Assembly: GCA_963790475.1 (NCBI GenBank)
Contig: CAWBOS010000006.1
Span: 736,001-800,000, forward strand
Source of the DNA: an uncultured delta proteobacterium
GTDB lineage: Bacteria > Desulfobacterota > RBG-13-43-22
Length of the DNA stretch: 64,000 nucleotides
Direction: 5' to 3'
Shown here: positions 18,465 through 59,462 of the stretch, one piece after another
Position numbering within the stretch: the stretch's first letter is position 1
Layout: each line of letters begins with the position of its first letter
Notes under the pieces: generated by a model
Told to the model about the DNA's origin: nothing
Databases searched by the model: none
Seen by the model: only the letters and a program-made list of their open reading frames with translations
Position numbers and translations under genes: made by a program

Positions 18465-18565
18465 GATGATCATGATTGGTAAAGGAGTTAAGTCTACCCA
18501 GGCGAAGAAATCCAAGCCACGGGTTAGACCGAAATCCGTTTTTCAACCTCAAGGGGAGGACCGGC

Positions 18566-19387
18566 ATGATCAACAACTCAGCACTCCAAAAATGGGATCG
18601 ACTGGCCCAGAAACAATTGGATCGACAGTTCATGAATGAAATCATCCAAGGTCTGCAATGCTCGCCTTTCGAAGCCGGTGCCATCCTGGACACCGTCTAC
18701 AAAGTGTATCGACCTTATTTTGAAACCAGTGGCACGCTTAAGCCAGGGCAATTACTCTTTCAGGTAATTGCGGTGGAAGCGTCCCCGAATAAACCTTTAG
18801 CTCAGGGCCGACAAGTGACCGTAACGCTGACTCTCGATTCCGGTCCGGAGGACCTGAAGATCCGAAAGCAAAAAGGGATCATCGGACTCAGGCAGCACCG
18901 ACTCCAGCGGGTTTGTCACGAAGCCTTCCAACAAGGAGGCTTGTTGACCCTGGAGGACTTGGCCAATCGGTTGTTCAATTGTGGCGAAAGAACCCTGTCT
19001 CGAGATCTGCAGGCCCTCCAAGAAAAAAAGGTTCTCTTGCCCCTTCGTTCCACGATTAAAGATATGGGCCGTTCCATTTCCCATCGTAACCTAATCGTCC
19101 AGGAATGGCTCCAAGGAAAAGAATATACCGAAATCGCTCAGACCACCCATCATAGTATTCCTGCCATAAAAAACTATATCGACAAATTCAAACGGGTCAT
19201 CGCTTTAACCGAGGAAGGATTTGACCGCCATACCATCGCCTTCCTGGTCAAACTTTCGGCTCAACTGGTTGAAGTCTATTATCAGCTTTATCAAACTCTT
19301 ACGATCGTTCCTCATCGGAAAGAAGAATTGTGCCTTTTTCTAAAAAAAAAGAGCCCCTTCCCGACGCCGCCCAGGAGGATCCGATGA
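18566..19387 (+). CDS. DUF1670-family HTH protein (copy 1)
   Basis: EAFQQGGLLTLEDLA, RTLSRD, DMGRSISHR, HSIPAIKNY; ATG 18566 with GGAGG RBS. Confidence 0.8.
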   Translation: MINNSALQKWDRLAQKQLDRQFMNEIIQGLQCSPFEAGAILDTVYKVYRPYFETSGTLKPGQLLFQVIAVEASPNKPLAQGRQVTVTLTLDSGPEDLKIRKQKGIIGLRQHRLQRVCHEAFQQGGLLTLEDLANRLFNCGERTLSRDLQALQEKKVLLPLRSTIKDMGRSISHRNLIVQEWLQGKEYTEIAQTTHHSIPAIKNYIDKFKRVIALTEEGFDRHTIAFLVKLSAQLVEVYYQLYQTLTIVPHRKEELCLFLKKKSPFPTPPRRIR

Positions 19388-20133
19388 TTAAAGCGCCGGA
19401 CAGTCAAAAACGATATAACGCCGCCAGAGATCGCTTCCTCCAGGCGGGAATGATCAACTTTTTCGCCCGTGAATTCCCCAAACTCTTTGGCCCAGTGATG
19501 CGGCAAAAACTGGCCGAAGAAATTGTTGGTCTTTTTGAAAGCCTATCCCCGGAAGTCAAGCGACTGAAACCGGGGCAAATCCTTTGGAATGCCCTGGACC
19601 AGAAAACACGGGGCGATTCACCCCGCCGCAGATATGTTCCGGTCGTGTTATCCATCATTACCCCGGAGGATGTAGAACGACTGGCTCAAGGCCAGCCCCT
19701 GTCCCAGATCGCTGAAAAGGCCATCGCCCGCATAATCTTGGAAGCTCATGACCAAGGCGGCATCCTTTCCATGCGCGATATCGGCTTGCTCCTCTTAAAA
19801 CATCCATCCCAGGTCTCTCGGTTAAGAAAAAATTATGAGAAAGATCAGGGCTGCACTCTGCCGCATACCGGTGCCTTACATGACATGGGATCTTGTCTGT
19901 CCCATAAAACCACCATTCTGCAGAAGGTACTTGTCGAAAAAAAAGATCCGGCCGATGTCGCCAGAGAATGTCGTCATACTCAGCAAGCGGTCGACCGATA
20001 CCTTAAAGACTATCATCGTGTTAAAACGGTTTATGACCAAAATCAAGACCTAAATTATATCCATATCGTAACCGGATTAGCCAAACATGTGGTTAAACAG
20101 TACATTAACATCGTCAATCATGAAAACTTTTAA
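19384..20133 (+). CDS. DUF1670-family HTH protein (copy 2, divergent paralogue)
   Basis: EAHDQGGILSMRDI, DMGSCLSHK, HTQQAVDRY; ATGA overlap and AGGAGG RBS. Confidence 0.8.
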   Translation: MIKAPDSQKRYNAARDRFLQAGMINFFAREFPKLFGPVMRQKLAEEIVGLFESLSPEVKRLKPGQILWNALDQKTRGDSPRRRYVPVVLSIITPEDVERLAQGQPLSQIAEKAIARIILEAHDQGGILSMRDIGLLLLKHPSQVSRLRKNYEKDQGCTLPHTGALHDMGSCLSHKTTILQKVLVEKKDPADVARECRHTQQAVDRYLKDYHRVKTVYDQNQDLNYIHIVTGLAKHVVKQYINIVNHENF

Positions 20134-21152: not shown

Positions 21153-24100
21153 TTATTTTGTTGCTTCTTCGACGGTCTTGATCTCCTCCTCTGTCAGCCC
21201 ATATAGATCATAAACCAGTTGGTCGATTTGGAGGTCGGTTGCGTCGATCTGGCGCTGGAGGACGATCTTTTCTTGGTCAGTTTTGGCCTCGGCCACTTGC
21301 TTATGTAAGGACAGCATTTGCTCGACATGGGCGACCATTTGGTCATGATGGGCCGTTTCTGCGGAGTCGCGCTTCATAATAGAAACTATTGGTAATTGCG
21401 CCAGGAATTGACGGTTGGCAGAAAGCCAGCCCCCTCGAAAGGGTGCACTGACAAAAGGAAAATACCAACGCAAAAGTTTTGAATTAAGCAATCCGAGAAG
21501 ATATATCATACCCAGCTCTTGAAATGCAGGCTTTAAAGTAATACCCCCAACGTCCACATTGTCCAGGAAATGACTGCCTTCTTGGTCATAAGCAGCATAT
21601 AATTTATCGACAAGGCGTGGAACGCACAGCTTTGGGAAAGATTGTCGTGCCATGTTTTTAAGGTAAAGATATCCGTACCAATGTGTTCCCTTTGCTTTTC
21701 CTTTTTCGCGTTCTTCTAATCGCTTTCTATTCTTTAGAAGGTATTCTGCGGTTTTTTGATAATTTTTAGAGATCAGATTGAAGTCAATCAATTTTACTAC
21801 TGAGTTTTCAATTCTATAGGGGAAAAGAATATATTGGCGGCGTGGCAAAGCGCGGTACCGGTTTACGTCTGATCCACTCACTAATGGGAACAATATATCT
21901 TTCTCAAATATCCAATCATCCCCAAGGGATTTGGATTTCAACCGCAAGGTGCGCGGTGTCTCTTCGATAAAATCCATAATGAATACATCATCTGCACTTG
22001 TTTGCAATCCAACAAAAACATCGGCTACCAATCCCAATTTTAAAGGTATCTCATTCAATCTCTCAAAAAGTCCAGCACTTTTTCCAATGGTAAAATTCCA
22101 TTCAGAAGGAGTAATTCTTGTTGAAGGAATTATTCTCTCGTTTGCCTTTCTCGTTTTGCTCCAGATATTCAAATCATCTACCTTAATAAATTGGAATTGT
22201 CTTGTACCTACCTTATCCAAGAATAAAAGACATGTATAAGTCGTCGCTCCGTCGAAGACCTGCTGTGCTCCAAAATGAACTATTTGAGAAAGGTGATTTC
22301 CCATTGAGATTGCATTGCGGAGAGGCTGGCCATACTGGGAATTAAAGAACTTGTGCGGCAGAATGAAGCCTAAATGCCCTTTAGGATTCAGAAGGCTCAG
22401 TCCTTTTTCAACAAAAACGACGTAAATGTCGTAATTGCCTTTACCGGCGGAAGCATAACGTTTCTTGTAAAACTCCACTTCAATAGGCGCCCACTCCTTT
22501 AAGGCTTGGATTCGCATGTAGGGTGGATTGCCAATGACTGCATCGAATCCCCCTGATTTCATGGCCTCGGGAAATTCGGTCTTCCAGTCAAAGGCATTGA
22601 TTCGATAAGCCTCATCTTCGTTCAAAAAGCTTAATTGCTGTCCTTGAGAAAAATCCGGCCCAATGAGGGAGTTGCCGCATTTGACATTATTGCCCAAATC
22701 TGGCAGGGCTCGTTCACGGAACAACTTGAGCTGTCTGGAGAAGGTTTGTTCGTTTTCTCCTTCCAGCACTTTTAATAAAAGCGATAGCTTGGTAACCTCC
22801 ACGGCTTGGGAGTCGATGTCCACTCCATAAATATTGTTCAGCAAGATGCGCTTACGCTCGGCAGTGGTTAGCTTCCACTCCCCCCTGTGACCTTGGCATA
22901 AAACAGGAGAACGTCCGGTGGTCCATTTCCGGGGTGTATTTTTCTGGTACCAGTCCAAATGCCAGCCCAGTAAATACTGATAGGCATTGATCAGGAATGA
23001 ACCCGACCCACAGGCCGGGTCCAAAATACGAATTTTAGCCCCCTGTTTGGGCGTCTTTCCGGTTACCAATTTCCCCAGGGTATTTTTAACGATGTAATCC
23101 ACAATATAAGTGGGAGTGTAATATACTCCACCGGCCTTCTTGACCTCCGGCTTGTCCTCTACGACTGCCCGGTGTCCGGCAGTCAGACGAATGACCTTCC
23201 CCAAAAACTGTTCATACACCTGGCCGAGGATATCGGCCGGCAGAACGAAAAATTCATAAGGGCTGTCGGGATAGTAAAGGTCCTTGATGATTTCCTTCAG
23301 CGGCGCATCATCAATAATCAAGTTGGGGGTGAGCCGGTCCGGTTCTTCATTCCGCCCTTTTTCTAAGGAAAAATGAAACAGGCCGGAATTATAACGTTCA
23401 TCGGCCAAACGGAAAAAATGATCAAGGCGGCGGTAAACATTGGTCCCATTGACTAACGATAAAAGCCGGTTGTAGTCTTCAATGCCCCGGTCCTCACAGA
23501 TACGCAGGAAAATGATCCGGTCGATAATTCGTTGGACGGAAAAGTTGAGCTCCCGCTGTGTGAGGTCCGGATTGCGCAGGGCCAGATTGCGGGCCAGGAG
23601 TTCCCGCCAGGATTCGATCTCTTTAAGAAAGGCCGTGTCCACCTCGGCCGTTCCTTTTTTCCCCTTACCCGCTTCGGCATATTTATCAAATGAACCCTTA
23701 AGAACCGCCTCATGAGAAAAGACAGAGACAATTTCTTCCCAATGTTGAACATATTCCTGTACGGTTAGATAAAGGACGCGGGCGGTTGAGGCTTTATCGG
23801 CCTTATCCGGTTTGATCCGGCAGTCATAAACAGCGAATTCTTCGAAATTGGTCAGGATACTCAAGGGAAGTTTAGCCGACCAGGCATAGCGGCGAAGCTG
23901 AAAGGCCGCGCCAATGTCTTCCTTAATCTTGATCGAGGGTTTCTTGGCTTCAATGAAAAATTTTCGGGTGCCGCCGATTCGGAAACAGTAATCCGGGGCT
24001 TTGGTCACTCCCCCCACTTTAATGGCATCTTCATGAATGACATCCTTATAGGACTCGGCATACCCCTGCTTGTTGTTCACGTCCCAGCCCAAGGCCTCAA

Positions 24101-24221
24101 AAAAAGGATCGACAAACTCCCGGCGCAACTGGGTCTCGTTGTAAGGGTCGGAATGATAGGCTTGATGGTTTTGTTCAAACCGGTTGATCAGTTCGGTGAT
24201 AACAGGAGGAAGTGCGATCAT
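21153..24221 (-). CDS. Type IIG (Eco57I-like) fused restriction endonuclease/N6-adenine methyltransferase
   Basis: PD...EAK nuclease, GVYYTP, DPACGSG, GNPPY, C-terminal TRD and LVYDLYGL tail. Confidence 0.92.
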   Translation of the reverse strand: MIALPPVITELINRFEQNHQAYHSDPYNETQLRREFVDPFFEALGWDVNNKQGYAESYKDVIHEDAIKVGGVTKAPDYCFRIGGTRKFFIEAKKPSIKIKEDIGAAFQLRRYAWSAKLPLSILTNFEEFAVYDCRIKPDKADKASTARVLYLTVQEYVQHWEEIVSVFSHEAVLKGSFDKYAEAGKGKKGTAEVDTAFLKEIESWRELLARNLALRNPDLTQRELNFSVQRIIDRIIFLRICEDRGIEDYNRLLSLVNGTNVYRRLDHFFRLADERYNSGLFHFSLEKGRNEEPDRLTPNLIIDDAPLKEIIKDLYYPDSPYEFFVLPADILGQVYEQFLGKVIRLTAGHRAVVEDKPEVKKAGGVYYTPTYIVDYIVKNTLGKLVTGKTPKQGAKIRILDPACGSGSFLINAYQYLLGWHLDWYQKNTPRKWTTGRSPVLCQGHRGEWKLTTAERKRILLNNIYGVDIDSQAVEVTKLSLLLKVLEGENEQTFSRQLKLFRERALPDLGNNVKCGNSLIGPDFSQGQQLSFLNEDEAYRINAFDWKTEFPEAMKSGGFDAVIGNPPYMRIQALKEWAPIEVEFYKKRYASAGKGNYDIYVVFVEKGLSLLNPKGHLGFILPHKFFNSQYGQPLRNAISMGNHLSQIVHFGAQQVFDGATTYTCLLFLDKVGTRQFQFIKVDDLNIWSKTRKANERIIPSTRITPSEWNFTIGKSAGLFERLNEIPLKLGLVADVFVGLQTSADDVFIMDFIEETPRTLRLKSKSLGDDWIFEKDILFPLVSGSDVNRYRALPRRQYILFPYRIENSVVKLIDFNLISKNYQKTAEYLLKNRKRLEEREKGKAKGTHWYGYLYLKNMARQSFPKLCVPRLVDKLYAAYDQEGSHFLDNVDVGGITLKPAFQELGMIYLLGLLNSKLLRWYFPFVSAPFRGGWLSANRQFLAQLPIVSIMKRDSAETAHHDQMVAHVEQMLSLHKQVAEAKTDQEKIVLQRQIDATDLQIDQLVYDLYGLTEEEIKTVEEATK

Positions 24222-25495
24222 TTCTTTTTTTTCGTGTTTCGGTTATGGGCGGGCAGGGATAGTCGCCACAAGGCATCCACCGGCAAAGCCTGCAATCGGG
24301 ATCCAAAGGGAATGGATTCGGTCCCGGTGTAAAAGACCAAACCCCGATGAAATCGTTTTCCGACTTCTTCTGATAAAAATTTTATTGATTTAAAGTCGTG
24401 GATACCCACGGTATTGCTGGCCTTGATCTCGATAGCCGTCAATCGCCCCTGGGCATCCTCCAGAATAATATCTACCTCTTGTCCTGATTGGGTGCGGAAA
24501 TGAAATAATTGCGGCTGTGTCCGACTCCAGGAAATTTGTTTCCGAAGTTCCATGACCACAAAATTTTCAAGAAGAGGTCCGACGTGGGAGGTATAGGCCA
24601 TACCCTGATCCGCCCTTAGTCCTAAAAGATGGGCCAGCAAACCCGTGTCAGTGAAAAAGATTTTGAAGGATTTAACCAGCCTTTTACTTAGGTTTCCTGA
24701 CCATGAGGGAAGCGTTTGAATCAGAAAGGTTATCTCCAACAGACTCATATAACGTTTGAGTGTCGTTTGGGGAATGGTGGTGCTCCGGGAAAGTTCTGAA
24801 AAATTAAGCAGGGAGGTACTTCGAACTGCCAAAAGAGAAAGCAATCTTGGCAGCATGGTAAGGCCTTCGATCTGAGCCAGATCACGCACTTCACGTTGCA
24901 GAATAGTGTTTACATAAGAATTGAACCAAGCTCTGCGTCGGGATTCCTGCGATCGAGCGAGAATCTCCGGGAAACCACCAGGCAAAACAATCTTCGTGAA
25001 AAGATCGGTGCGGGATGCTGGGTCCCCGACCAAGACCGGCAATTTTTCACTGAAGACGGCATCGATAAAATTTTTTTGAATACCTTCTTTTTCACCCTGG
25101 GAAAAAGGCCAAAGGGTAAGGATTTCCATCCTCCCCACGAGGGATTCGGAAAGAGAGGGCAGAAATAAAACATTAGCTGACCCGGTGAGCAAAAATCGGC
25201 CGGGTTGGCGATGGCGATCCACTTCGGCCTTTATAGCCAGGAAAAGATCAGGAACCCTTTGGACTTCATCCAAGACTACCGGTCCTTCCAGACCGGCCAG
25301 AAACCCGGCAGGATCATGTCGGGCGGCTGACAAGATAACCGCATCATCAAAAGTGAGATAACGGGCAGGATGCTCTCCGGAGGCCAACCAGCGGACCAAG
25401 GTGCTTTTCCCTGTTTGACGAGCACCGATCAGCATTACCACCGGGGTATCGTTTAAGGCTTCCAGAAGAAACGGGGTGATATTTCTCCGAATCAT
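24218..25495 (-). CDS. AAA_14 ATPase with DUF4143 domain
   Basis: GARQTGKS, LDEVQ, LTGS, GGFPE, DTGL, EVD...IEIK. Confidence 0.9.
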   Translation of the reverse strand: MIRRNITPFLLEALNDTPVVMLIGARQTGKSTLVRWLASGEHPARYLTFDDAVILSAARHDPAGFLAGLEGPVVLDEVQRVPDLFLAIKAEVDRHRQPGRFLLTGSANVLFLPSLSESLVGRMEILTLWPFSQGEKEGIQKNFIDAVFSEKLPVLVGDPASRTDLFTKIVLPGGFPEILARSQESRRRAWFNSYVNTILQREVRDLAQIEGLTMLPRLLSLLAVRSTSLLNFSELSRSTTIPQTTLKRYMSLLEITFLIQTLPSWSGNLSKRLVKSFKIFFTDTGLLAHLLGLRADQGMAYTSHVGPLLENFVVMELRKQISWSRTQPQLFHFRTQSGQEVDIILEDAQGRLTAIEIKASNTVGIHDFKSIKFLSEEVGKRFHRGLVFYTGTESIPFGSRLQALPVDALWRLSLPAHNRNTKKKK

Positions 25496-38191: not shown

Positions 38192-38884
38192 ATGGACACT
38201 AAACCATTTGAGATCATTCCCGGAATTTATTGTGTGGGTGGTTCCGAACTCTCCCATCCCCAAGATGCCCTGGTTTATCTGATCAAAGGAGAAGGGAAGA
38301 CCGCGCTCATCGATTCCGGAGCGGGAAAGGGCTCGGCCGTGATCTGGGAAAATATCCGGGAAGCGGGAGTGAATCCGCAGGATCTGACCTATCTTATTCT
38401 AACCCATGGCCATGTAGACCATATTGGCGGGGCCTCCTTTTTCCAGGAACGTACCCGTTGCCTTACGGTTGCCCATGAATTGGATCAGGAGGCCATCGAG
38501 ACCGGGGATCCAGGTTTGACCGCCTCTTCCTGGTATGGCCTGAACCTACCCCGTCTTAAAGTCGATCGGGTATTAAAGGACAAGATCGAGGAACTTCCTA
38601 TGGGCCGAAAAGAAAATCTTATCTGTTTACACACCCCGGGTCACACCCCGGGATCGATTTCCCTTTACCTCGATCGACAGAAACTACGGGTCCTCTTCGG
38701 TCAGGATATCCACGGCCCTTTTTCCAAGGCTTTCGGATCCAACCTCAGTGATTGGAAACTTTCCATGGAGGAACTACTAGCCTTAAAGGCCGACATCCTA
38801 TGCGAAGGACATTTCGGTATCTTTCGACCGGCCCAAAAGGTGCAGAGCTATATCGAACAATACATGAAACAATATTTATCCTGA
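38192..38884 (+). CDS. MBL-fold metallo-hydrolase
   Basis: THGHVDHIGG, HTPGHTPGS, EGH. Confidence 0.92.
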   Translation: MDTKPFEIIPGIYCVGGSELSHPQDALVYLIKGEGKTALIDSGAGKGSAVIWENIREAGVNPQDLTYLILTHGHVDHIGGASFFQERTRCLTVAHELDQEAIETGDPGLTASSWYGLNLPRLKVDRVLKDKIEELPMGRKENLICLHTPGHTPGSISLYLDRQKLRVLFGQDIHGPFSKAFGSNLSDWKLSMEELLALKADILCEGHFGIFRPAQKVQSYIEQYMKQYLS

Positions 38885-39310
38885 AATCCAGTCCCCTTTA
38901 TTTCCTTAAATCTGACCAATGCTAACACAAATCCCCGTTTTAGGTTATTCTTGTAACTGCCGATATTATGGCCTTCTGTGGATTTCTACAGGAACACAAT
39001 TTGTCAATGTTAATATTCCAAATAAAATGTTCACAACGATCCTCCCTTGTCTGGAGCCAAGAGGCTGCTCACAAGGCCCTCATGCAGTGAGTAAAGGGGG
39101 ACGCTGGGACTAAAACAACTTATTTTTTATCTTTTTCTTATTTGTGACCCAGAATAACCGATTGATTCCTTGGTTACTCGGCAATCCGAAATCTAAATTC
39201 TGAAATGGTCTTTGGAAAATAGGGACACATCCGGGATTTTGATATTGCTTTGAAAAAGTCTTTAAACAAATAAGAGAGGGCGTCCTCTACCAAACGTAGG
39301 ATTTTCCCCT

Positions 39311-39440
39311 TTCCCGGTAGCAATGACAAAGGGGCCGCACCCTTTCTCATCCCGAAGAGGTCAGTTAAGTCCTTCTGCGCCGATGGTACTGCCTGGGCAT
39401 TCCCCAGAGGCGGGATGGGAGAGTAGGACGCCACCTGGAA
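39311..39440 (+). rRNA. Degenerate orphan 5S rRNA-like copy A (full length, possibly pseudogene)
   Basis: catcccgaa, gttaag, cgccgatggtactgc, tgggagagtagg; ends pair as helix I; extra segment in helix IV. Confidence 0.8.
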
Positions 39441-39611
39441 TTAAAAAAAGTCCGTTTTCAATCCGCCCTGTTTTTCTTCTCAAAATTTTATCATTGATCC
39501 TGCATTTTTCTTGTTTTATACTTAAATAAAGGGTTGACCTGGTAAATAAAATATGAAGTTATCAAGTACTACCCGGAGAGACTTCCCCCGAACCACCAAA
39601 ATTCGCTAAAA

Positions 39612-39938
39612 GTGAGGAGCCGGCTTATGATAGAGTTCAATCCTTATGAAAAAGGTACTAGGGGATGGGGCTTCAACCCGATAATTTTCGAATTTCCTGA
39701 AACCCCGCCATTTTCAAAAAAGGATAGTCCCCAAAAAATACATATCACCAGAAGAGAAGTAGAAGTGTTGCAATGGTTACAACAGGGGAAGAGTTCCTGG
39801 GAGATATCTAAAATACTCGGTCTTAGTGAGAGGACGGTAAATTTCCATATCTATAATGTCATGGAAAAGATTAAGGCGGTAAATCGACTGCAGATGGTAA
39901 GCATTGCTTTGCGCTTGGGGCTTATTGATCTGAAATAA
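39612..39938 (+). CDS. LuxR-type HTH-only protein (no autoinducer-binding domain); start uncertain
   Basis: ITRREVEVLQWLQQGKSSWEISKILGLSERTVNFH. Confidence 0.75.
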   Translation: MRSRLMIEFNPYEKGTRGWGFNPIIFEFPETPPFSKKDSPQKIHITRREVEVLQWLQQGKSSWEISKILGLSERTVNFHIYNVMEKIKAVNRLQMVSIALRLGLIDLK

Positions 39939-40217
39939 ACCAATCCATCCGGCGCCCTTGCCTTTTTCCCAAACATAGATGGCCCACCTGATGAGACTCC
40001 TGTAATTTCTTACAGGTGTTTTTAAAATAATTAAACGTTAATAATTTACCATTTCTAAAACCGAATGTAATCATGGGGAGGGAACAATTTAGGCGTTGGC
40101 CCATCACTTTCTTTAATGATTTTAATCCTGCATAACCCCTTTTCGGATTTTTTGTGATTGAGATGGGGAGCATTTTCATATTTACGTATTTTTTTAAGAA
40201 GGGAGCCTTAAAAAAGA

Positions 40218-41384
40218 ATGGAAAAGTCAAACCGTGATGCTGTAATCGTCGCTGCTGTTCGGACACCCATTGGCAGGCGTGGCAAATCCCTGAGCCAGAC
40301 GCGGCCTGAAGACCTGGCGGCAGATGTGCTGAATGGAGTAATTCGACGCTCTGGCATTGATCCTGGTGAGGTGGAAGATATTATCATGGGGTGCGGTACG
40401 CCTACGGGTGAGCAGGGGGTGAATATCGGGCGTCTTTCCACCTTGATTGCCGATTTCCCGGTTGAAGTGCCTGCTGTTACGATCAACCGTATGTGTGCCT
40501 CTAGTGATCAGGCAACCCACTTCGCCACACAGGCTATTCTGGCGGGTGATCTGGACGTGGTCATTGCCGCTGGAATCGAGAGCATGAGCCGGGTTCCCAT
40601 GGGTTCCGATAGTGCCCCAAAATTCAGTAGACGGCTGGCCAAGAAATACTGGATCATTCCACAGGGTGAGTCTGCAGAACTTATGGCGGAAAAATGGCAG
40701 ATAAGTCGAGAAGAATTAGATGCCTATTCCCTCGAAAGTCACAGACGTGCTGCCCAGGCCCAGGACGAAGGGCGTTTTGATCGAGAAATCATGCCTCTTG
40801 AGATCGTTGGCCCTGAAGGAACCTCTGTTTTATTTGCTAAGGACGAAGGTCCACGCCGGGATACTTCAATGGACCAACTGGCAGGATTAGCTCCAGCGTT
40901 CAAGGAGGGGGGCAAAATCACTGCCGGGAATTCAAGTCAGATGAGCGATGGGGCGGCTGCTATCCTTTTTATGAAGCGGGAAAAGGCCAAGCGTCTGGGG
41001 TTAAAACCGAGGGCACGCATTATCGGCCGCGTGTCGGTCGGTTCTGATCCCACATTGCAGCTTTCCGGGCCTATCGTCGCTACAAAAAAAGTGCTCCAAA
41101 AGACTGGCCTTACGCTGAAAGACTTGGACGTCATCGAGGTGAACGAGGCCTTTGCCTCAGTGGTACTGGCTTGGGCTCGGGAGTTTAAACCGGATATGGG
41201 GAAAGTAAATCCCAACGGCGGAGCCATCGCCTTGGGTCATCCCCTGGGGGCGACTGGTGCCAGGATCATGACGACGCTACTGAATGAATTGGAGCGACGC
41301 GACGGACGCTACGGTCTCCAGACCATGTGTATCGGCCACGGACTGGCGAATGCCACAATTATTGAGCGAGAAGATGGTTTTTAA
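40218..41384 (+). CDS. Thiolase (acetyl-CoA acyltransferase)
   Basis: NRMCASS, NEAFA, GGAIALGHPLGATG, MCIGHG. Confidence 0.96.
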   Translation: MEKSNRDAVIVAAVRTPIGRRGKSLSQTRPEDLAADVLNGVIRRSGIDPGEVEDIIMGCGTPTGEQGVNIGRLSTLIADFPVEVPAVTINRMCASSDQATHFATQAILAGDLDVVIAAGIESMSRVPMGSDSAPKFSRRLAKKYWIIPQGESAELMAEKWQISREELDAYSLESHRRAAQAQDEGRFDREIMPLEIVGPEGTSVLFAKDEGPRRDTSMDQLAGLAPAFKEGGKITAGNSSQMSDGAAAILFMKREKAKRLGLKPRARIIGRVSVGSDPTLQLSGPIVATKKVLQKTGLTLKDLDVIEVNEAFASVVLAWAREFKPDMGKVNPNGGAIALGHPLGATGARIMTTLLNELERRDGRYGLQTMCIGHGLANATIIEREDGF

Positions 41385-41387
41385 CCT

Positions 41388-41453
41388 AAGTTAGCCCTTC
41401 GGCCCTGATGGTGCTGTTCGGGCAACTGGGCGGGCGAGTAGAACACCACCCGG
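41388..41453 (+). pseudogene. 5S rRNA 3'-half fragment, copy B
   Basis: aagttagcccttcggccctgatggtgctgttcgggcaactgggcgggcgagtagaacaccacccgg is colinear with the 5S 3' half; GCAA loop intact. Confidence 0.7.
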
Positions 41454-41693
41454 TATTTTTTCAGCCCCTTTTCAATCCTCCGTTTCTCGGGATTGAAAAG
41501 GAGCTTTTTATTTTTATCCTATTCAGTAGACCAAAGTTGTCCACTGAATAAAAGGGCTTTCTTGACTGCTGTGAACCGTGCGCTACTGGCGGTGATTGTG
41601 AATGTGGCTGCTGCAAGGCAGTGCCGAAAGAAGACAAGAAACCGAGCTGCTGAGGTGAGGATAGAGGGAGTCTATTAAAGAGACAGGGCCCCT

Positions 41694-41845
41694 CCTGGCT
41701 GGTAGAAAATCATGGAAAAATTAAAATAGCCAAGGGGCCACACCCGTTCCCATCTCGAACTCGTAAGTTCTAATCCCTTCTGCGCCGATGGTACTGCCTG
41801 GGCAGTCCTGCTGAGGCGGGATGGGAGAGTAGGACATCACCGGGC
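41694..41845 (+). rRNA. Degenerate orphan 5S rRNA-like copy C (near full length, with insertions)
   Basis: ccacacccgttcccatctcgaac, cgccgatggtactgcctgggca, tgggagagtagg; AT-rich insert near 5' end and hairpin insert. Confidence 0.8.
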
Positions 41846-42031
41846 TTTTTCTTTTTTGCTGCCCTTTGAACCCTCAGAAAAAAATTTCTCGGCGCTTTTT
41901 TCAAGCAGTATATGGAAACAGCAATTCCCCTTAGCTTCAAAATCAGACTAACCTCCTGAAAGGTAACCCCGCCCTTCCCTTTTTCAACCTTCCTTGCCTT
42001 TAAAATAATTCCGTTTTACAATGAGAACTAC

Positions 42032-45000
42032 ATGACCCCCCACAATTCCAGAGACCCCCTTTCATTCTTCCATCCCCTGATCCGAAAATGGTTCAGGGAA
42101 AGTATCGGGGTTCCTACCAACATACAGTCGCAGGCCTGGCCGGAAATTGCTTTGGGGAAACATGCCCTGATAACAGCTCCCACAGGGAGCGGCAAAACAC
42201 TTACCGCCTTCCTCTGGGCCATCAACCAACTGGTCACCGGAGCTTGGGAACCGGGTCGGACCCGTGTCCTCTATGTCTCCCCCTTAAAGGCTCTCAACAA
42301 TGATGTGCAACGCAACCTCATCAAACCGATTGATGAGCTTAAGGCCTTTTTCCTGAAGTCTGAGGAGAATTTCCCCCTCATCAGTGTGCTGACGCGAAGC
42401 GGCGATACCCCGACCGAAGATCGCCGGCAGATGTTGCGCCGCCCACCGGAAATCCTGATCACCACCCCGGAAAGTCTGAATATTCTCCTGAGTTCCCGAA
42501 ACGGCAGGGGATTACTGGGGGGCCTATCGACTGTCATTCTGGATGAAATTCATGCCGTGGTCGGCACCAAGCGGGGCACCCATCTCATTACCGCTGTGGA
42601 TCGGTTGGTTCTCCTTTCCGGTGAGTTCCAGCGCATCGCGCTGTCGGCTACGGTAAAGCCCCTTCCGATCGTGGCCGAATTTGTCGGCGGCTATAGGCTA
42701 TTGAACGGGGGTAAGACCTGTCATTATGAAAAAAGAAAAGTGGAAATTATCAGGTCAAAAGATAAGAAAGATTATTTGATTGAGGTCCGCTTTCCGCCGG
42801 AGGCCAGGGAACATCTGGTCGATGCCTCCTGGTGGCCGGCCCTGGCCGAATCCTTCAAAGAGGTTATCCTGGCCAATCGTTCCACCCTGCTTTTTGCCAA
42901 CAGCCGCAGGATTGCCGAAAAGGTTACCCGCCTGATCAACGAAGGAGGAGAAGAGGAATTAGCCTATTCACACCACGGCTCCCTTTCTCGCGAGATCCGT
43001 CTGGCCGTAGAACAGAGATTGAAGGCGGGTGAACTGAAAGCCATCGTGGCCACCAGCTCTCTCGAACTGGGCATCGATATCGGCGATCTCGACCGGGTGA
43101 TCCTTATCCAGGCTCCGCCCTCCATTTCATCGGCCATTCAGCGGATCGGACGATCCGGCCACAGGGTCGGCGGGTTGAGCCGCGGTCTTCTCTATCCCAC
43201 CCACGGCCGCGATTTTTTGAATGCCGCAGTCATCGCCGAAGGGGTCATGAGTCAGGATATCGAAGCCGTCAGACCCATCGAAAGCCCCCTGGATGTGCTG
43301 GCCCAGGTGATCATTTCCATGACCGGCCTTGAAGCATGGGATATAAATGAGCTCTTCTTTTTTATCAAGACCAGCACTCCCTATCATCACCTCTCCCGCC
43401 AACAATTCAATCTGGTGCTGGAGATGCTGGCCGGGCGGTATGCCGATACCCGGCTTCGGGAACTCAAGCCCCGTATCTCCATGGATAAGATCGATAACAC
43501 CCTTCAGGGGAAAGAAGGGGTGCTGCGATTGATCTATCTGTCGGGCGGCACCATTCCGGATCGGGGTTACTATGATCTTCGAATAGCCGATTCAAAATCC
43601 AAGATCGGCGAACTGGATGAAGAATTCGTCTGGGAACGGAGTATCGGAGATACCTTCACCCTGGGTGCCCAGGTCTGGCGTATCCAGAAGGTGACCCATA
43701 ACGACGTGGAGGTCAGTCCGGCCGAGGTCAAACCAGGTATTTTCCCTTTCTGGAGGGCCGAGGACCAGAATCGGGATTTCCACTTCTCGGAAAAGATCCT
43801 GCTGTTCCTGGAAAAATTTCATAAGCGGATCGATGCCCTTTCTTTCAAGGAGGAACTGGCCCGGAAATATTGTTTGGATGAAGCCGCCGTTATTGAGCTC
43901 ATCGATTTCTTGAAACGGCAAAAAGAGGCCACCAAAACCGACCTGCCTCATCGGCACCATCTGCTCATCGAGCATTTTCATGATCCGCTGAACACGGCCG
44001 AAGGCCGGCAGGTTATCCTCCATACGATCTGGGGAGGAAAAATCAACCGGCCCTTCAGCCTGGCCCTGCAGGCCGCTTGGGAAGATAAATATCACGCTCA
44101 TCTGGAAGTCATTCAGAATAACGATTGTATCCTATTGATCCTGCCCCATGAATTTTCGATTGGGGAGCTCTTTGCCCTGGTCAAACCGGAAAACCTGGAT
44201 AAGCTGCTTAGGCAGTCCCTGGAACAAAGCGGATTTTTCGGGGCTAAATTCAGGGAAAATGCCGGACGGGCCCTTCTGCTTCCCCGTTCCGATTTCAAGA
44301 GGCGCCTGCCCCTTTGGCTCAACCGGCTTCGATCCAAAAAGCTGATGGACGCGGTTATGGCCTATCCGGATTTTCCCATTCTTCTGGAAACCTGGCGTAC
44401 TTGCCTTCAGGATGAATTCGACCTGGAGAATTTAAAAAAACTATTGGAAGAAATCCGAAACGGTCAGATAAAAATCAGCGAGACCTTCACCTCGGCCGCT
44501 TCTCCTTTTGCCGAAGGCTTGATCTGGAAACAGACCAACACCTATATGTATGCCGATGATTCCCCCCTTTCCGGCAAGACCTCGGAGTTAAGTCAGGAAC
44601 TCTTGAAAGAAGTTGTCTTTTCTCATCGCCTCAGACCGCGGCTTCCCGAGAATCTGGTTCGATCCTTGGAAGCGAAACTTCAGCGTACAGCCCCTGGATA
44701 TGCCCCCAGATCAGCCCAGGATCTTTTGGACTGGATCAAGGAAAGGGTGTTGATCCCGGCCTCCCAGTGGCAGGAGCTGATGAGGACTATAGATCAAGAC
44801 CGTGATATTCCGGCCAGTGATATGGTGGACTTGATACAAGAAAAAATCATCTCCATTAAACTGCCCGCTGCCTCTATCCCTCTGGTCTGCGCCGTGGAAA
44901 ATTTACAACGCATCGTCATGGGGTTTAATCTCCGACAGGAAGAAGTTGATATCCGGGATGCCTGTTCAAATGGACCAATAAACGGACGAACCGTCCTTTT

Positions 45001-46540
45001 AATTGAGACTGTTTTTAAAAAATATTTTACTGAGCTGGAAGGACAGGAGGAAACCACGCCAGCGGACATTTTGCGGCAATGGCTTTCTTTTTATGGCCCA
45101 GTCGGCAAATCCTCTCTGAAAGAAATTCTGGGTCTGGAAGAATCTTATCTGGATGAGATTATCTCCGGCCTGGCGGAATCCCAAGATGTTGTCTTCGACC
45201 GGCTTACGGAAAAGGCCGAAGAAATGGAACTCTGTGACCGGGAAAACCTGGAAATATTGCTTAGAATGGCCAGAAAATCCCGGCAGCCCCTTTTCAAGGC
45301 CCTGGGCATCGATCATCTCCCCTTGTTCCTGGCGGCCTATCAGGGCCTGACCAAGCAGGGCGAATCGACCGAAGACCTGCAGCGGGTCCTGGATCAACTC
45401 TTTGGTTTTCCCTCTGAGGTTGAGGCCTGGGAAAAACACATTCTTCCGGCCCGACTATCCCCCTATTACGGCACCGGGTTGGACAATCTGAACCGGACCA
45501 GCGATCTGCTCTGGTTCGGCTGCGGAAAAAGAAAAATAAGTTTTTCTTTTTCTGATGATCTTGAACTCTTCCTCAATCAATACGGATATGATGACGAGGG
45601 GCAAACATCGGTTGAGCCCCTCCTGCCGGATGAACTGGCCGGTCTGCTGCCTCGAAAAATCGGACGATACAGTTTTTTTGATATAGCCCGATTTTCGAAT
45701 TTGGACAGCCGCGATTTGAGCAAAAAACTCTGGGACCTTTTCTGGAAAGGTTTGATTAGCAATGATACTTTCGCCACCCTTCGCCAGGGGATCTTAACCA
45801 AATTTGCTCCCCTGCCTCTAAAAAGAGAAGAGGGGCGGCCTTCCCGTTCGGCCTTCAACCGCTGGGTCTCCACCCGCCCCCTTTCGGGAAACTGGTATAT
45901 CCTGGACCGCGACTTTATAGAAAAAGATCCCATCGATGAAGCGGAGTTGGTCAAGGATCGGGTCCGTCAGCTTTTCCGACGCTACGGCCTGATCTTTCGT
46001 GAACTGTTGGCTAACGAACTGCCTTTGCTCCAGTGGAATAAAGTATTTAAGGCCCTGAGGCTCATGGAGCTCTCTGGAGAAATTTTATCGGGATATTTTT
46101 TTGAAGGGATTCCCGGTGTTCAATTTATTTCGCCGGAGGCCTTTAGGTTCTTAAACGAGCCTTTGCCGGATGAAGCGGTTTACTGGTTAAATGCCACAGA
46201 TCCGGCTTCCCTTTGCGGCCTCAAGTTGGAAGCCCTCAAGGGTAGGCTTCCCAGCCGCATTCCCTCCACCTATCTGGTCTATCAAGGCCATCGACTGGCC
46301 ATGCTTTCCCGCCGCAACGGCAGACACCTGGAAATTCTGGTTCCCCCTGATGATACCCATTTCCAGGACTACCTGGCTTTTTTCAAAGTTTTGCTGACCA
46401 GGGAATTCAGCCCTGAAAAAATCATCTCCGTTGAGAGGATCAACCAAAAACCCGCACTGGAGAGCGAATATGCCGACCTCCTTAAAGCCTTCGGCTTCAG
46501 CCGCTCGTATAAGGGATTGGAATTGGTCAGAAGGTACTGA
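42032..46540 (+). CDS. lhr: Lhr-family SF2 ATP-dependent helicase, long form
   Basis: APTGSGKT, SPLKAL, TTPES, DEIH, SAT, HHGSLS, LELGID, QRIGRSGH, GTIPD, DPA C-terminal domain. Confidence 0.93.
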   Translation: MTPHNSRDPLSFFHPLIRKWFRESIGVPTNIQSQAWPEIALGKHALITAPTGSGKTLTAFLWAINQLVTGAWEPGRTRVLYVSPLKALNNDVQRNLIKPIDELKAFFLKSEENFPLISVLTRSGDTPTEDRRQMLRRPPEILITTPESLNILLSSRNGRGLLGGLSTVILDEIHAVVGTKRGTHLITAVDRLVLLSGEFQRIALSATVKPLPIVAEFVGGYRLLNGGKTCHYEKRKVEIIRSKDKKDYLIEVRFPPEAREHLVDASWWPALAESFKEVILANRSTLLFANSRRIAEKVTRLINEGGEEELAYSHHGSLSREIRLAVEQRLKAGELKAIVATSSLELGIDIGDLDRVILIQAPPSISSAIQRIGRSGHRVGGLSRGLLYPTHGRDFLNAAVIAEGVMSQDIEAVRPIESPLDVLAQVIISMTGLEAWDINELFFFIKTSTPYHHLSRQQFNLVLEMLAGRYADTRLRELKPRISMDKIDNTLQGKEGVLRLIYLSGGTIPDRGYYDLRIADSKSKIGELDEEFVWERSIGDTFTLGAQVWRIQKVTHNDVEVSPAEVKPGIFPFWRAEDQNRDFHFSEKILLFLEKFHKRIDALSFKEELARKYCLDEAAVIELIDFLKRQKEATKTDLPHRHHLLIEHFHDPLNTAEGRQVILHTIWGGKINRPFSLALQAAWEDKYHAHLEVIQNNDCILLILPHEFSIGELFALVKPENLDKLLRQSLEQSGFFGAKFRENAGRALLLPRSDFKRRLPLWLNRLRSKKLMDAVMAYPDFPILLETWRTCLQDEFDLENLKKLLEEIRNGQIKISETFTSAASPFAEGLIWKQTNTYMYADDSPLSGKTSELSQELLKEVVFSHRLRPRLPENLVRSLEAKLQRTAPGYAPRSAQDLLDWIKERVLIPASQWQELMRTIDQDRDIPASDMVDLIQEKIISIKLPAASIPLVCAVENLQRIVMGFNLRQEEVDIRDACSNGPINGRTVLLIETVFKKYFTELEGQEETTPADILRQWLSFYGPVGKSSLKEILGLEESYLDEIISGLAESQDVVFDRLTEKAEEMELCDRENLEILLRMARKSRQPLFKALGIDHLPLFLAAYQGLTKQGESTEDLQRVLDQLFGFPSEVEAWEKHILPARLSPYYGTGLDNLNRTSDLLWFGCGKRKISFSFSDDLELFLNQYGYDDEGQTSVEPLLPDELAGLLPRKIGRYSFFDIARFSNLDSRDLSKKLWDLFWKGLISNDTFATLRQGILTKFAPLPLKREEGRPSRSAFNRWVSTRPLSGNWYILDRDFIEKDPIDEAELVKDRVRQLFRRYGLIFRELLANELPLLQWNKVFKALRLMELSGEILSGYFFEGIPGVQFISPEAFRFLNEPLPDEAVYWLNATDPASLCGLKLEALKGRLPSRIPSTYLVYQGHRLAMLSRRNGRHLEILVPPDDTHFQDYLAFFKVLLTREFSPEKIISVERINQKPALESEYADLLKAFGFSRSYKGLELVRRY

Positions 46541-46624
46541 TAGGCGGGTGTGGATAAAACTTTTTCAGGCTGAAACAATTTATTTGTTCTACGATCGATA
46601 ACCTGAAAAAATTTGTCTCCTCAT

Positions 46625-46688
46625 AGCCGAGGGTAATGCCTGCGCAGTCCTGCTGAGGCGGGATGGGAGAGTAGGCTGCCACCGTGAA
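46625..46688 (+). pseudogene. 5S rRNA 3'-half fragment, copy D
   Basis: gcagtcctgctgaggcgggatgggagagtagg identical to copy C. Confidence 0.75.
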
Positions 46689-46703
46689 TTTTTATAAAGC
46701 CCC

Positions 46704-47456
46704 TTATTGTGCCAGTAATCCCGTTTCTTCGGAACTGGCCAAAGGGCTGACGGCCGAAGTCGGCTTCCTGGCCGCTCCGAAATAGATGATGGCGGTGTTC
46801 CCCCTGGAAGAGATGATGGCCGGAAAATCGCCCTTCCCAGGCGAATGCCGATTGAACTTAACCCCGGCCAATTCTATATTGGTGAATCCCTGGTTCTCCA
46901 AAAGAACCCTCAAATCGGCAGGAGAGATAAAAAGGGGCCAGTGATGGGTCCCCCGTGGCATGAACCTGATGAGGATTTCCCCGAGCCAGATGATAAACAA
47001 TTTGGACCAGAAGGTTTTATTGAAGGTGTCAAAGAACAACCATCCACCTGGTTTGAGCACCCGGTATATCTCACCAAGGGTAAGACCCTTATCAGGCATA
47101 TGCTCCAACACATCAAAACAGGTGACGGCATCCATTGTCTGGTCGTTGAAGGGAAGCCGTTCGGCGGTGCATAGATTATACTCGATATCCAGATTGTTTT
47201 CCCTGGCATGTTCTCGAGCCTGCTGGAGGGATTCTGCCATGATATCTGTTCCGAAAACCACCGCCCGGCGTTGGGCCAGGAATTCACAGGCATACCCGCC
47301 GCCGCAGCCCACATCAAGCACTTTAACCCCGTCCCACCCATCCAGAAAATGGTCAAAATGGGCAAACCGTACCGGGTTCAGTTTATTTAAAAAGATATGG
47401 TCCCCACTTGGGGGCCACCAATGATAAGATCCGCCATGTAAATCTTTCTGATCCAT
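46704..47456 (-). CDS. UbiG-like SAM-dependent O-methyltransferase
   Basis: LNPVR, VLDVGCGGG, DVLEH, PRGTH.W..FI.P. Confidence 0.85.
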   Translation of the reverse strand: MDQKDLHGGSYHWWPPSGDHIFLNKLNPVRFAHFDHFLDGWDGVKVLDVGCGGGYACEFLAQRRAVVFGTDIMAESLQQAREHARENNLDIEYNLCTAERLPFNDQTMDAVTCFDVLEHMPDKGLTLGEIYRVLKPGGWLFFDTFNKTFWSKLFIIWLGEILIRFMPRGTHHWPLFISPADLRVLLENQGFTNIELAGVKFNRHSPGKGDFPAIISSRGNTAIIYFGAARKPTSAVSPLASSEETGLLAQ

Positions 47457-47460
47457 TAAT

Positions 47461-48021
47461 CTATTTCCTCCCCATTTCCAATGTCTGAACACCTCTCTTG
47501 ATGTCAACTGGGATTTTCCCGTTCCTTCTTATCTTTTCAAAAGCAGTAAAAAACCATTTGAATCTTTTCGTAACATGAAAAATTAGATACACCAACAAGA
47601 CCCAGGTTATTTTGTCGTGTATCTCCATATAAAATCCACGGCTTAAGGCCGGGCCTCCGCTCAACTTGATAAACCATGAGATATACCCGGTGACAGCCAC
47701 TAAAATAAAAATTATCGTCATGATAATCGCTTGCTGGTTTTTAAAGACTAACTTCTTCTTCCGTACTACCGCCTTATACCATTTCCAGTGCAGGATGATA
47801 TGAAAGACCATGCCAATGGATACGAGGACGACTGAAATTAAATGAATGTCCGACCAGTTGAAATAATTTAAACCTAAAACTAAATTGTTTGTATCTATTT
47901 CTCCGTGATGCCCCATGTGGTAGCCGATTTGTATCCAAAGGCCGGAAAAAACCATGGCCGACCCAAACAACAGCAGTCCAAGATTTATTAAAAAACTAGG
48001 TATCGGATTTTTCTTTAACAT
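47461..48021 (-). CDS. DUF4405-like membrane protein (two His-containing repeats, putative cytochrome b)
   Basis: WSDIH...FHIILHWKW and MEIH...FHVTKRFKW. Confidence 0.7.
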   Translation of the reverse strand: MLKKNPIPSFLINLGLLLFGSAMVFSGLWIQIGYHMGHHGEIDTNNLVLGLNYFNWSDIHLISVVLVSIGMVFHIILHWKWYKAVVRKKKLVFKNQQAIIMTIIFILVAVTGYISWFIKLSGGPALSRGFYMEIHDKITWVLLVYLIFHVTKRFKWFFTAFEKIRRNGKIPVDIKRGVQTLEMGRK

Positions 48022-58055: not shown

Positions 58056-59462
58056 GAGCCTCTTGCAAAAGTCTATTTTTAGGGAATAGACAAGCATAAA
58101 GAGTGAGCCTCAGCGGTGGTTCTGTGTTAAGATGATGTTTAGAAAGAACACAAAAAAACACAGGAGACACCGATGAAGCTCTGGAAAAAAGTATCATGGT
58201 TAAGGGGTAGATTGCAACAAGGTTTATTTTCCGATTTAGAAGAATGTTGGGAACAGCCTTTGACTGAAAAAGAGGAACGGCTGGTGACGATATTGGAACT
58301 GGTTGAGGTTGAAAGATATGTTCCCCGGAGTTCTTTAAATCAGTGGATGGGGAGGAAGATCCTTGAGCGCCAAGCGATAGCGCGGGCTTTTGTGGCCAAG
58401 ACGGTCTATAACCATTCCTTCACCAGATCAACCATTGAACATTTGAAAACGACGTCTAATGTAAGACGCATCTGCGGGTTCGAAAAGGTATCCGACATTC
58501 CCTCTGAGGCCACTTTTTCCAGGGCCTTTGCGGAGTTTGCCGAAGGGGGGCTTGGCGAAAAAGTTCACGAAGCCCTGGTGGAACGTTGTTTAAAGCCGGA
58601 ACTGGTTGGTCATATATCCCGAGACGCAACGGCCATAGAAGGTCGGGAAAAGCCGACTAAGAAGCCTGTAAAAGAAAAGCCTGCGCCGAAGAAGAGAGGA
58701 CGTCCAGTCAAGGGAGAACTCCGTGATTCCAAGGAAGACAAACGCTTGACCAGGCAACGAGAGCAATCAGTTGAAGAGGCCTTAAAAGAATTGCCGGTTT
58801 ACTGCGACGTAGGGACCAAGAAGAACTCCAAAGGGTACAAAGAGACCTGGGTCGGGTATAAACTCCATGCCGATGTTAATGATTGCGGATTGCCGGTGAG
58901 TGTCGTCTTGACCGCAGCATCGCTTCATGACAGCCAGGTCGCTATACCGTTAATGAAGATGACCAGTTCCAAGGTGGATTATCTTTATGATTTGATGGAT
59001 GCCGCTTATGACGCTGGATCTATCTATGCAATCAGCAGAGCTCTGGGACATGTGCCCATTATCGACAAGAACTTCCGCGGTAAGGATGTGATCCCTATGG
59101 CTCCCCACGAGGCCAGAAGATTTAATGGAAGGACAGCATCAGAACGGTTCAATAGCCGGTTAAAAGAAGAGTTCGGTGCCAAGAATGTCATGGTCCGAGG
59201 AGCCTTGAAAGTCAATCTCCATCTCATGTTTGGCGTCCTGGCGCTCTTTGCGGATCAGTTGATAAAGTTGGCTTCCTGAGTAAATTTTCAAAGAACGGGG
59301 TGAAAAGTTCAGGTCAGGAGGAGAACTATGCCTGAAAATTGTTACCAAAGTCTCAAATCTGACTATCGTCGTTAAGAAAGACCCAAAATTTCTAAATCGA
59401 CTGGGATAACTGCCTGCTGATATATTTCATCATGCAGTTTTTATAAGTTTTGCAAAAGGCTC
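58056..59462 (+). mobile_element. Insertion sequence (IS5/IS1182-like DDE), 1407 bp, intact
   Basis: TIR GAGCCTCTTGCAAAA / TTTTGCAAAAGGCTC; TTAT target duplication at 58052-58055 and 59463-59466. Confidence 0.92.
58173..59279 (+). CDS. DDE transposase
   Basis: PSEATFSR, RDATAI, GYKLH, HDS, MDAAYD, ERFNSRLK. Confidence 0.93.
   Translation: MKLWKKVSWLRGRLQQGLFSDLEECWEQPLTEKEERLVTILELVEVERYVPRSSLNQWMGRKILERQAIARAFVAKTVYNHSFTRSTIEHLKTTSNVRRICGFEKVSDIPSEATFSRAFAEFAEGGLGEKVHEALVERCLKPELVGHISRDATAIEGREKPTKKPVKEKPAPKKRGRPVKGELRDSKEDKRLTRQREQSVEEALKELPVYCDVGTKKNSKGYKETWVGYKLHADVNDCGLPVSVVLTAASLHDSQVAIPLMKMTSSKVDYLYDLMDAAYDAGSIYAISRALGHVPIIDKNFRGKDVIPMAPHEARRFNGRTASERFNSRLKEEFGAKNVMVRGALKVNLHLMFGVLALFADQLIKLAS

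Follow-up and report, generated by a model that had tools for sequence, protein, structure and literature searches.

Four 5S rRNA-derived sequences in a 64-kb window

We analysed a 64-kb stretch of DNA from an uncultured deltaproteobacterium (genome G000), corresponding to C6:736001-800000 of a 6.34-Mb, 20-contig assembly and referred to here as the window; coordinates given without a contig are those of the window. Between positions 39313 and 46688, the window carries four sequences derived from the 5S rRNA gene, designated A, B, C and D, all on the plus strand and interspersed with protein-coding genes. They were compared with the 5S genes of related genomes (designated by G numbers) and with contigs from two other public sequencing runs (X2 and X4) that are ~94-95% identical to G000, and were assigned to a lineage-specific family of 5S rRNA gene duplicates to which we gave the name 5S-L. 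The region is organized as follows (HTH, helix-turn-helix; UTR, untranslated region).

39210..39312 (+): 5S-L leader, ~105 nt (nhmmer leader profile, E 2.5e-21)
39313..39439 (+): copy A, full length, 127 nt, with remodelled helix IV and inserted hairpin (Rfam 54.0 bits, E 1.7e-08, model 1-120)
39627..39938 (+): LuxR/GerE-type HTH regulator, 103 aa from the conserved ATG (Pfam GerE, 1.2e-21)
40218..41384 (+): thiolase, acetyl-CoA acetyltransferase family (Pfam Thiolase_N, 4.5e-72; Thiolase_C, 1.3e-45)
41387..41453 (+): copy B, 3' half, of the type without hairpin (nhmmer E 3.5e-07, profile 49-126)
41463..41516 (+): predicted rrn-type intrinsic terminator behind B, hairpin then T-run (folding and homology)
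41716..41845 (+): copy C, without the 5' strand of helix I, hairpin insertion with loop UGAG (Rfam match 41726-41835, 40.1 bits, E 8e-05, model 11-110)
41975..46625 (+): lhr unit, comprising promoter, gene and ~85 nt of 3' UTR (flank alignments with G011 and G012)
41994-42022 (+): lhr promoter, TTGCCT, 17 nt, TACAAT
42032-46540 (+): Lhr helicase gene, 1502 aa (Pfam DEAD, Helicase_C, DEAD_assoc, WH_Lhr)
46613..46688 (+): copy D, 3' half of a hairpin-bearing 5S-L, ending in a T-run (nhmmer match 46613-46685, E 3.6e-12, profile 54-125)
46704-47507 (-): methyltransferase gene, convergent, facing D

When the whole window was searched with Rfam, two 5S_rRNA matches exceeded the gathering score (RF00001, 38 bits), namely A (54 bits over model positions 1-120) and C (40.1 bits over 11-110), as against 99.8 bits for the copy residing in the genome's rRNA operon. 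B and D lack the 5' strand of helix I as well as helices II and III and are too short for this model; even a permissive scan (E <= 10) of positions 38500 to 47500 gave no 5S match beyond A and C. Both were nonetheless recovered by nhmmer and by a repeat search, in which A, B, C and D all lie in register. The initial annotation of this DNA, which had listed four co-oriented 5S-derived sequences and proposed the Rfam 5S model as a check, is thus borne out for all four copies, although the model itself detects only two of them.

With blastn-short, D matched C (94% over 50 nt) and A (21/21), and B, the most diverged of the four, matched only itself. All four copies are mutated, as had been remarked: A and C are each 86% identical to the operon 5S of G000, B is 68% and D 64% identical to it. 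The repeat search gave an in-register identity of 66-69% for A and B, and one of 85% over 67 nt for C and D, the most similar pair. The homology of B begins ~3 nt past the thiolase stop codon (41382-41384), in line with the spacing of 3 nt first reported. None of the four copies can make a working 5S rRNA in G000, because the fold of A is damaged, helix I of C has no 5' strand, and only half a gene is left in each of B and D. Moreover, A to D have no rrn transcription-unit context, and the sequence upstream of them differs from the 23S-5S spacer. Their description as degenerate relics bracketing protein-coding genes also holds, with LuxR, thiolase and lhr located between copies. A fifth relic, outside the window (C6:694923-695009; the 694.9k relic), consists of the 5' two-thirds of a 5S (31.8 bits, Rfam), and altogether the 5S-derived copies of G000 are spread over ~140 kb, with 0.3-5 kb of protein-coding genes between them.

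In the list of open reading frames (ORFs), the LuxR gene starts at a GTG at position 39612. An ORF on the opposite strand over A (39174-39434, 86 aa) was considered as a gene and rejected, as it has no Pfam family and its frames are interrupted or shifted among homologous leaders.

The true rrn operon of the genome

The same contig carries a complete 16S-23S-5S operon on the minus strand (C6:835349-841042), with the following genes.

C6:839484-841042 (-): operon 16S
C6:835590-838748 (-): operon 23S
C6:835349-835465 (-): operon 5S, 117 nt (Rfam 99.8 bits)

The operon 5S is 52.7 kb away from D and lies on the strand opposite to A-D. The early remark that no 16S or 23S is present is therefore correct for the window, in which Rfam gave no match for either subunit rRNA, but not for the contig. 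At the end of another contig (C15:641063-642367) we found a partial 16S that is 99.9% identical to the 16S of the C6 operon; therefore, G000 probably possesses a second rrn operon, collapsed in the assembly and with its 23S-5S end unassembled.

Two small ORFs located just after the operon 5S of G000 (C6:834696-835228) abut the 3' end of lhr in G007 (L056:2169-2704, G007:C9), which again points to blocks having been shuffled around rrn and lhr.

Extra 5S copies across the class

We extended the analysis to the class formed by the relatives of "Deltaproteobacteria bacterium RBG_13_43_22", which in GTDB comprises 21 species genomes of one family. A 5S match was obtained in 15 of the 21 genomes, and 10 of the 21 had more than one. 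Among 12 genomes from other families of the phylum, 8 showed a single match, 4 showed none, and 0 had more than one. A survey using nhmmer with a 5S profile on 12 stretches (11 loci of relatives and 155 kb of contig C6) retrieved 35 5S-type sequences, which consisted of (i) 7 operon genes, (ii) 17 approximately full-length extra copies, (iii) 5 fragments retaining only the 3' part, and (iv) 6 fragments retaining only the 5' part. In G008, G016, G007 and G009, extra copies occur directly downstream of the operon 5S, on the same strand. The order in G008 is 23S, operon 5S, LuxR, thiolase, two CoA-transferase subunits, and three extra copies separated by other genes. G010 resembles G000 in that its extra copies are inverted and lie 49 kb from the operon 5S on the same contig.

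Two further features were seen next to extra copies in these relatives. A penicillin-amidase gene between two 5S-L copies of G008 (L038:8385-11028, minus strand; G008:C65) is split into four consecutive ORFs, reflecting either a pseudogene or assembly frameshift errors, and a match to group II intron D1-D4 is situated directly 5' of an extra 5S copy of G010 (L039:15974-16151, minus strand; G010:C16), at 46.5 bits for an Rfam gathering score of 49.

Shared anatomy of 5S-L

Compared with the operon 5S, copies A, C and D have the 3' strand of helix IV (CUGGGUGG) replaced by a hairpin and linker, GUCCYGC-N4-GCGGGAUGG, which brings the copies to a length of ~127 nt (net insertion of ~10 nt). The same insertion is found in most extra copies of G004, G007, G008, G010, G011 and G016. 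A change in helix III (ACAGGTCAGT, where the operon 5S has ACACGGAAGT) is uncompensated and common to many extra copies across genera. Behind most copies, whether operon or extra, come a U-run and the rrn terminator (GCCCGTTTTCAA...TTGAAAACGGGC and a T-run).

The loops of two G008 hairpins are reverse complements of each other. The palindrome TCCCGC-N4-GCGGGA occurs 21 times elsewhere in G000, against ~0.3 expected from base composition, so that its conservation may reflect a process acting at the DNA level. Searched in genome_contigs, the strict 5S-L hairpin pattern gave, besides the G008 and G010 records, one match on a Gemmataceae contig, which was discarded as a chance occurrence (other strand, inside a 23S-5S spacer).

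As a separate observation, most occurrences of the palindrome elsewhere in G000 sit in a dispersed repeat resembling repetitive extragenic palindromes (REP-like), (GTCGTC)ATTCCCGC-N4-GCGGGAAT(CCAGG), which is present ~14 times (e.g., C10:519317, C10:1086294 and C12:1548438) and whose loops vary while the stems are constant, as in the 5S-L hairpin.

A profile of the ~105-nt leader, searched with nhmmer in G000 and the 11 loci, yielded 12 matches; 10 of these are immediately followed by a 5S-like sequence, A and the 694.9k relic among them. No match was found upstream of the operon 5S genes in the loci examined, and an origin of the leader from the 23S-5S spacer was rejected accordingly. Its alignment shows a candidate promoter (TTGATT, 17 nt, CTTAAT or CATAAT), of which A has a poorer version (TTGATA, 17 nt, TTAAAC) than the relatives; the leader may represent an old promoter with its 5' leader. 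A solitary leader devoid of a 5S body was encountered in G011 (L045:4412-5118, G011:C299), followed ~45 nt later by a HigB-like toxin and HTH antitoxin pair (higBA). A scan of positions 38800 to 47000 for consensus promoters and terminators produced counts not above those of shuffled sequences, and flagged neither the leader nor the terminator behind B, the loop of which exceeds 8 nt.

Relaxed constraint and decay

In order to assess constraint, the 34 consensus base pairs of the Rfam model were mapped onto each copy. All 7 operon copies keep 33 of the 34 pairs; all 28 extra copies and fragments keep between 15 and 31 (20-30 for the leader-bearing copies). The values in the window are 28/34 for A, 27 for C, 22 for B and 17 for D. 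Nearest-neighbour identity is 0.95-0.99 for the operon 5S between species and 0.72-0.93 for the extra copies. The clearest orthologous pair, formed by the 694.9k relic of G000 and a copy in G004, shows 73% identity in the 5S body, 86% in the leader and 85% in the flank. RNAalifold, applied to 8 leader-bearing units, detected no covariation for any fold (double change in 1 of 29 pairs; covariation term, +0.31), and an alternative conserved fold of leader plus 5S-L was rejected on this basis. Single-sequence folds of A-D and of the operon 5S (z-scores of -1.2 to +0.5) were not informative. Given the loss of pairs, the low identity and the lack of covariation, the extra copies evolve much like unconstrained DNA, except for the hairpin stem.

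Comparison of orthologous positions revealed deletions from either end. Where G000 has B, a full copy (86.5 bits) is present in G010, ~105 nt past the stop codon of the thiolase, and an X2 contig (~94% identical) shows the thiolase, 101 nt, and then a hairpin-bearing copy; since full copies hold this place, B is a secondary 5' deletion. In X2 and X4, the position corresponding to 41727 within C is joined to that of 41822 with GG between, leaving only the last ~25 nt and the T-run ahead of lhr. At the position of A, G010 has the leader and only 38 nt of 5S, which run directly into the upstream region of the orthologous LuxR gene, and G008 has the true operon 5S. Across the 12 stretches, 5'-only fragments (n = 6) are about as common as 3'-only ones (n = 5), which fits random deletion and not the duplication of an att site.

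A terminator retained behind B

A stable GC-containing hairpin with a T-run, as expected of an intrinsic terminator, is predicted behind B only. The B hairpin (41463-41516) folds at -21.4 kcal/mol (z-score, -5.5; none of 200 shuffles as good), the operon terminator at -22.7 kcal/mol (z-score, -8.4). The regions behind A, C and D fold no better than shuffled sequences and do not qualify as intrinsic terminators; that behind A, where the terminator hairpin has been lost, folds at -0.8 kcal/mol. The B hairpin is homologous to the one behind the operon 5S and to the flanks of other copies. It probably forms the end of a LuxR-thiolase transcript, as would also be the case for the intact units of G008 and G010, and is the only piece of A-D with a likely present-day role. 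The other pieces look like passengers in intergenic and 3'-UTR space, no role being evident for A, C or D. The suggestion that 5S had been co-opted as a dispersed structural repeat of 3' UTRs consequently retains weak support from the intact terminator of B, and none from the regions behind A, C and D.

Synteny and exchange of gene cassettes

The LuxR-thiolase pair is flanked by 5S-type copies in G000, G008 and G010, and partly so in the X2 contig. Its LuxR orthologues in G008 and G010 (~80% identity) occupy the same place after a 5S-type copy, and the thiolase is 92-94% identical to its orthologues in these two genomes. The association of LuxR-thiolase with a 5S-type gene would thus be a conserved synteny and not an island. 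As for lhr, the unit made of promoter, gene and 3' UTR is conserved in G011 and G012 with unrelated flanks, and in all 8 orthologue loci of relatives the gene is elsewhere, in a different neighbourhood each time; none of these 8 loci has a 5S-like flank (E <= 1). Regarding the proposal that relatives might lack the intervening genes, LuxR-thiolase was found to be present with its 5S flanks (G008, G010 and X2) and lhr to be elsewhere, and no genome among the relatives was found with an unoccupied C/D site.

These data bear on an alternative explanation, according to which the exchange of gene cassettes, with LuxR-thiolase and lhr as cargo, used 5S copies as anchors or left them as scars. It would have been mediated either by integrative elements targeting 5S, as put forward at the outset, or by integrase-free homologous recombination. 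Several observations speak for it: the cargo between 5S copies varies among genomes; the same LuxR block has A as its left neighbour in G000, the true rrn 5S in G008, and a 5S-L fragment by an HxlR cluster in G010, so that each of three left-hand synteny breaks coincides precisely with a 5S-type copy; 5S-type copies lie on either side of a molybdopterin-oxidoreductase cassette in G008, G010 and G016 (no close orthologue of it was found near any 5S copy in G000); lhr lies between C and D, the most similar copies, only in G000 and the X2/X4 strains; and rrn and 5S-L point in opposite directions in G000 and G010, but in the same direction in G008, G016, G007 and G009.

Against this, the Pfam scans of all window ORFs of at least 80 aa disclosed no integrase or recombinase near the copies, as had been noticed initially, and there is no tRNA in the window; its only mobile-element gene is a DDE_Tnp_1/DUF772 transposase (58173-59279, plus strand), ~11.5 kb from D. 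No near-identical direct repeats of the att kind were found, the repeats being as diverged as A/B and C/D, and the mixed polarity of the fragments, the secondary half state of B, the fact that no empty site was found and the conserved LuxR-thiolase synteny further speak against integration leaving a full gene and a 3' fragment. In addition, gene order changes throughout this clade, also where no 5S copy marks the break (examples are TetR | AP-endonuclease | MBL and, in 8/8 relatives, the surroundings of lhr); that a breakpoint falls at a copy is therefore weak, only suggestive evidence. Taken together, cassette exchange is unlikely as the explanation of A-D, and its integrase version is not supported. 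In a milder form, 5S paralogs may possibly serve as substrates of homologous recombination, in keeping with the three left neighbours of the LuxR block; recombination between them would be the most economical account of these varied neighbours and of the rrn inversion in G000 and G010.

Elsewhere in the window, a fused restriction-methylase of the Eco57I/MmeI-like type (1022 aa) is found beside an AAA_14/DUF4143 ATPase (21153-25495, minus strand), and two DUF1670 genes are arranged in tandem (18476-20133).

Discussion

We consider that A-D probably represent a birth-and-death family of 5S pseudogenes derived from the distal end of rrn (5S-L), of the kind reported by Stepanov & Fox (2021). The 5S gene and its intrinsic terminator would have been duplicated from the distal end of the rrn operon, and in an early duplicate helix IV would have been remodelled, a GUCCCGC-N4-GCGGGAU hairpin taking the place of its 3' strand. 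One sub-lineage would then have gained the ~105-nt upstream leader. Duplication, rearrangement and homologous recombination among the paralogs may have raised the number of copies and dispersed them in the vicinity of rrn, with partial homogenisation through gene conversion. Today they decay by uncompensated point mutations and by deletions from either end.

Several points weigh against this interpretation. (i) The hairpin stems TCCCGC and GCGGGA are intact in ~10-11 of 16 copies, and the 4-nt loop has ~11 forms; a constant stem with a free loop may mean selection on the hairpin or palindrome. (ii) The plausible -35/-10 pair of the leader, and the G011 leader placed before higBA, imply that leader-bearing copies may be transcribed. 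(iii) The 5S-L type, its leader and its terminator persist across at least two genera (g1 and g4), which is long for junk unless conversion refreshes the copies. (iv) Such conversion is itself a supposition; speaking for it or for recent duplication, the three copies of G016 have 3' ends and terminators in common that are specific to this genome, and the G008 copies at 8073 and 12584 are mutual nearest neighbours. (v) One extra copy of G010 is nearly intact (86.5 bits, 31/34 pairs) and could be functional. (vi) Finally, use of the B terminator is deduced from folding and homology.

The corresponding alternative is that 5S-L is a functional RNA family, either an alternative 5S with a helix IV expansion or an exapted extraribosomal small RNA, with A working and the other copies of G000 dead. 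It draws on the leader-body-hairpin-terminator architecture conserved across genera, on the hairpin and promoter features just mentioned, and on the precedent, in PMC7812874, of expanded 5S genes beside normal ones and of a stand-alone expanded 5S gene in other bacteria. It is at odds with the uncompensated helix damage of every extra copy (15-31/34 pairs), with an evolution several-fold faster than that of the operon 5S, with the truncation of copies at orthologous positions in one genome or another, with the lack of covariation in RNAalifold, with the degraded promoter-like hexamers and terminator of A, and with the 21 palindromes elsewhere, which make DNA-level conservation conceivable. On balance, we regard a functional family as quite improbable. 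The same low credence applies to a broader version, in which leader, 5S-L and terminator would constitute an independently transcribed family, an exapted extraribosomal small RNA maintained across a class-level lineage and with the helix-IV hairpin (constant stem, free loop) as its functional module, whose copies would also act as portable homology shuffling cassettes around rrn, those of G000 being its decaying fringe. The conserved hairpin and the REP-like recurrence of its palindrome leave a small probability for a functional or DNA-level role.

An assembly or binning artefact, with 5S fragments mis-joined into a metagenome-assembled contig, is scarcely credible: despite the 20 contigs, an estimated contamination of 9.68% and the apparent collapse of a second rrn operon, the C-lhr junction is bridged by contigs of X2 and X4, that of X2 continuing through lhr and D, another X2 contig has the thiolase then a 5S-L copy, and a similar arrangement exists on long contigs in seven other clade genomes, so that the artefact initially named as a possible refutation is set aside.

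A pseudogene family of this sort has a close parallel. In the paper by Stepanov & Fox (RNA 2021; PMC7812874), 5S-like remnants lacking one or both termini and carrying insertions were described distal to the normal 5S of rrn in Peptococcaceae and Pseudoalteromonadaceae, sometimes in several copies, each with a terminator and with insertions common to the remnants, and were read by their authors as pseudogenes and possible recombination donors. 5S-L agrees with these remnants in its missing ends and insertions, its multiple copies distal to rrn with terminators, and its relaxed constraint. Judged by the description of the remnants, it differs in that (i) the taxon is an uncultured class labelled Deltaproteobacteria RBG_13_43_22, (ii) the insertion is of ~10 nt net and replaces the 3' strand of helix IV, theirs being an expansion of 13-109 nt, (iii) protein genes are interspersed, and in G000 the copies spread over ~140 kb, inverted and ~53 kb from the operon, and (iv) many copies have in common a leader of ~105 nt that is not known to have been described. 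In Desulfallas gibsoniae DSM 7213, according to the same paper, an expanded 5S gene of uncertain transcription and function stands alone; like 5S-L, it is a 5S-type gene outside rrn, between unrelated protein genes, but it has the normal upstream sequence of an operon 5S and a foreign terminator, whereas 5S-L has a foreign leader and the rrn terminator. Our literature searches on truncated 5S genes, rrn recombination and genomic islands found nothing closer than Stepanov & Fox, and no paper was found under the clade name RBG-13-43-22.

Integrative elements targeting tRNA or tmRNA genes offer a superficial likeness, in that a stable-RNA gene and a co-oriented 3' partial copy bracket a few genes (A...B and C...D), but here there is no integrase, the repeats are diverged, 5' fragments are equally common, and the partial state of B is secondary. 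Eukaryotes have dispersed families of 5S pseudogenes, in which truncated and mutated copies exist beside functional ones under a mixture of concerted evolution and decay (birth-and-death); these are Pol III genes in tens to hundreds of copies, unlike the handful of bacterial copies found here, tied to the neighbourhood of rrn.

Overall, 5S-L is probably an ordinary but well-documented pseudogene family. In practical terms, programs for rRNA detection will annotate A, and at times also C, as 5S genes, thereby inflating the rRNA copy number and suggesting a phantom operon; in at least one relative (G004), the best 5S match of the assembly is a 5S-L copy. With this family, the occurrence of 5S remnants, as described in Firmicutes and Pseudoalteromonas, is extended to a class of uncultured deltaproteobacteria. 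The family also provides a time series of the death of a stable-RNA gene, whose orthologous sites hold full copies, copies truncated at the 5' or the 3' end and a stub of 25 nt, and a case of an rrn terminator apparently inherited by a neighbouring protein operon. Should the functional interpretation prove true, 5S-L would be a rare bacterial case of an rRNA paralog recruited to a new role.

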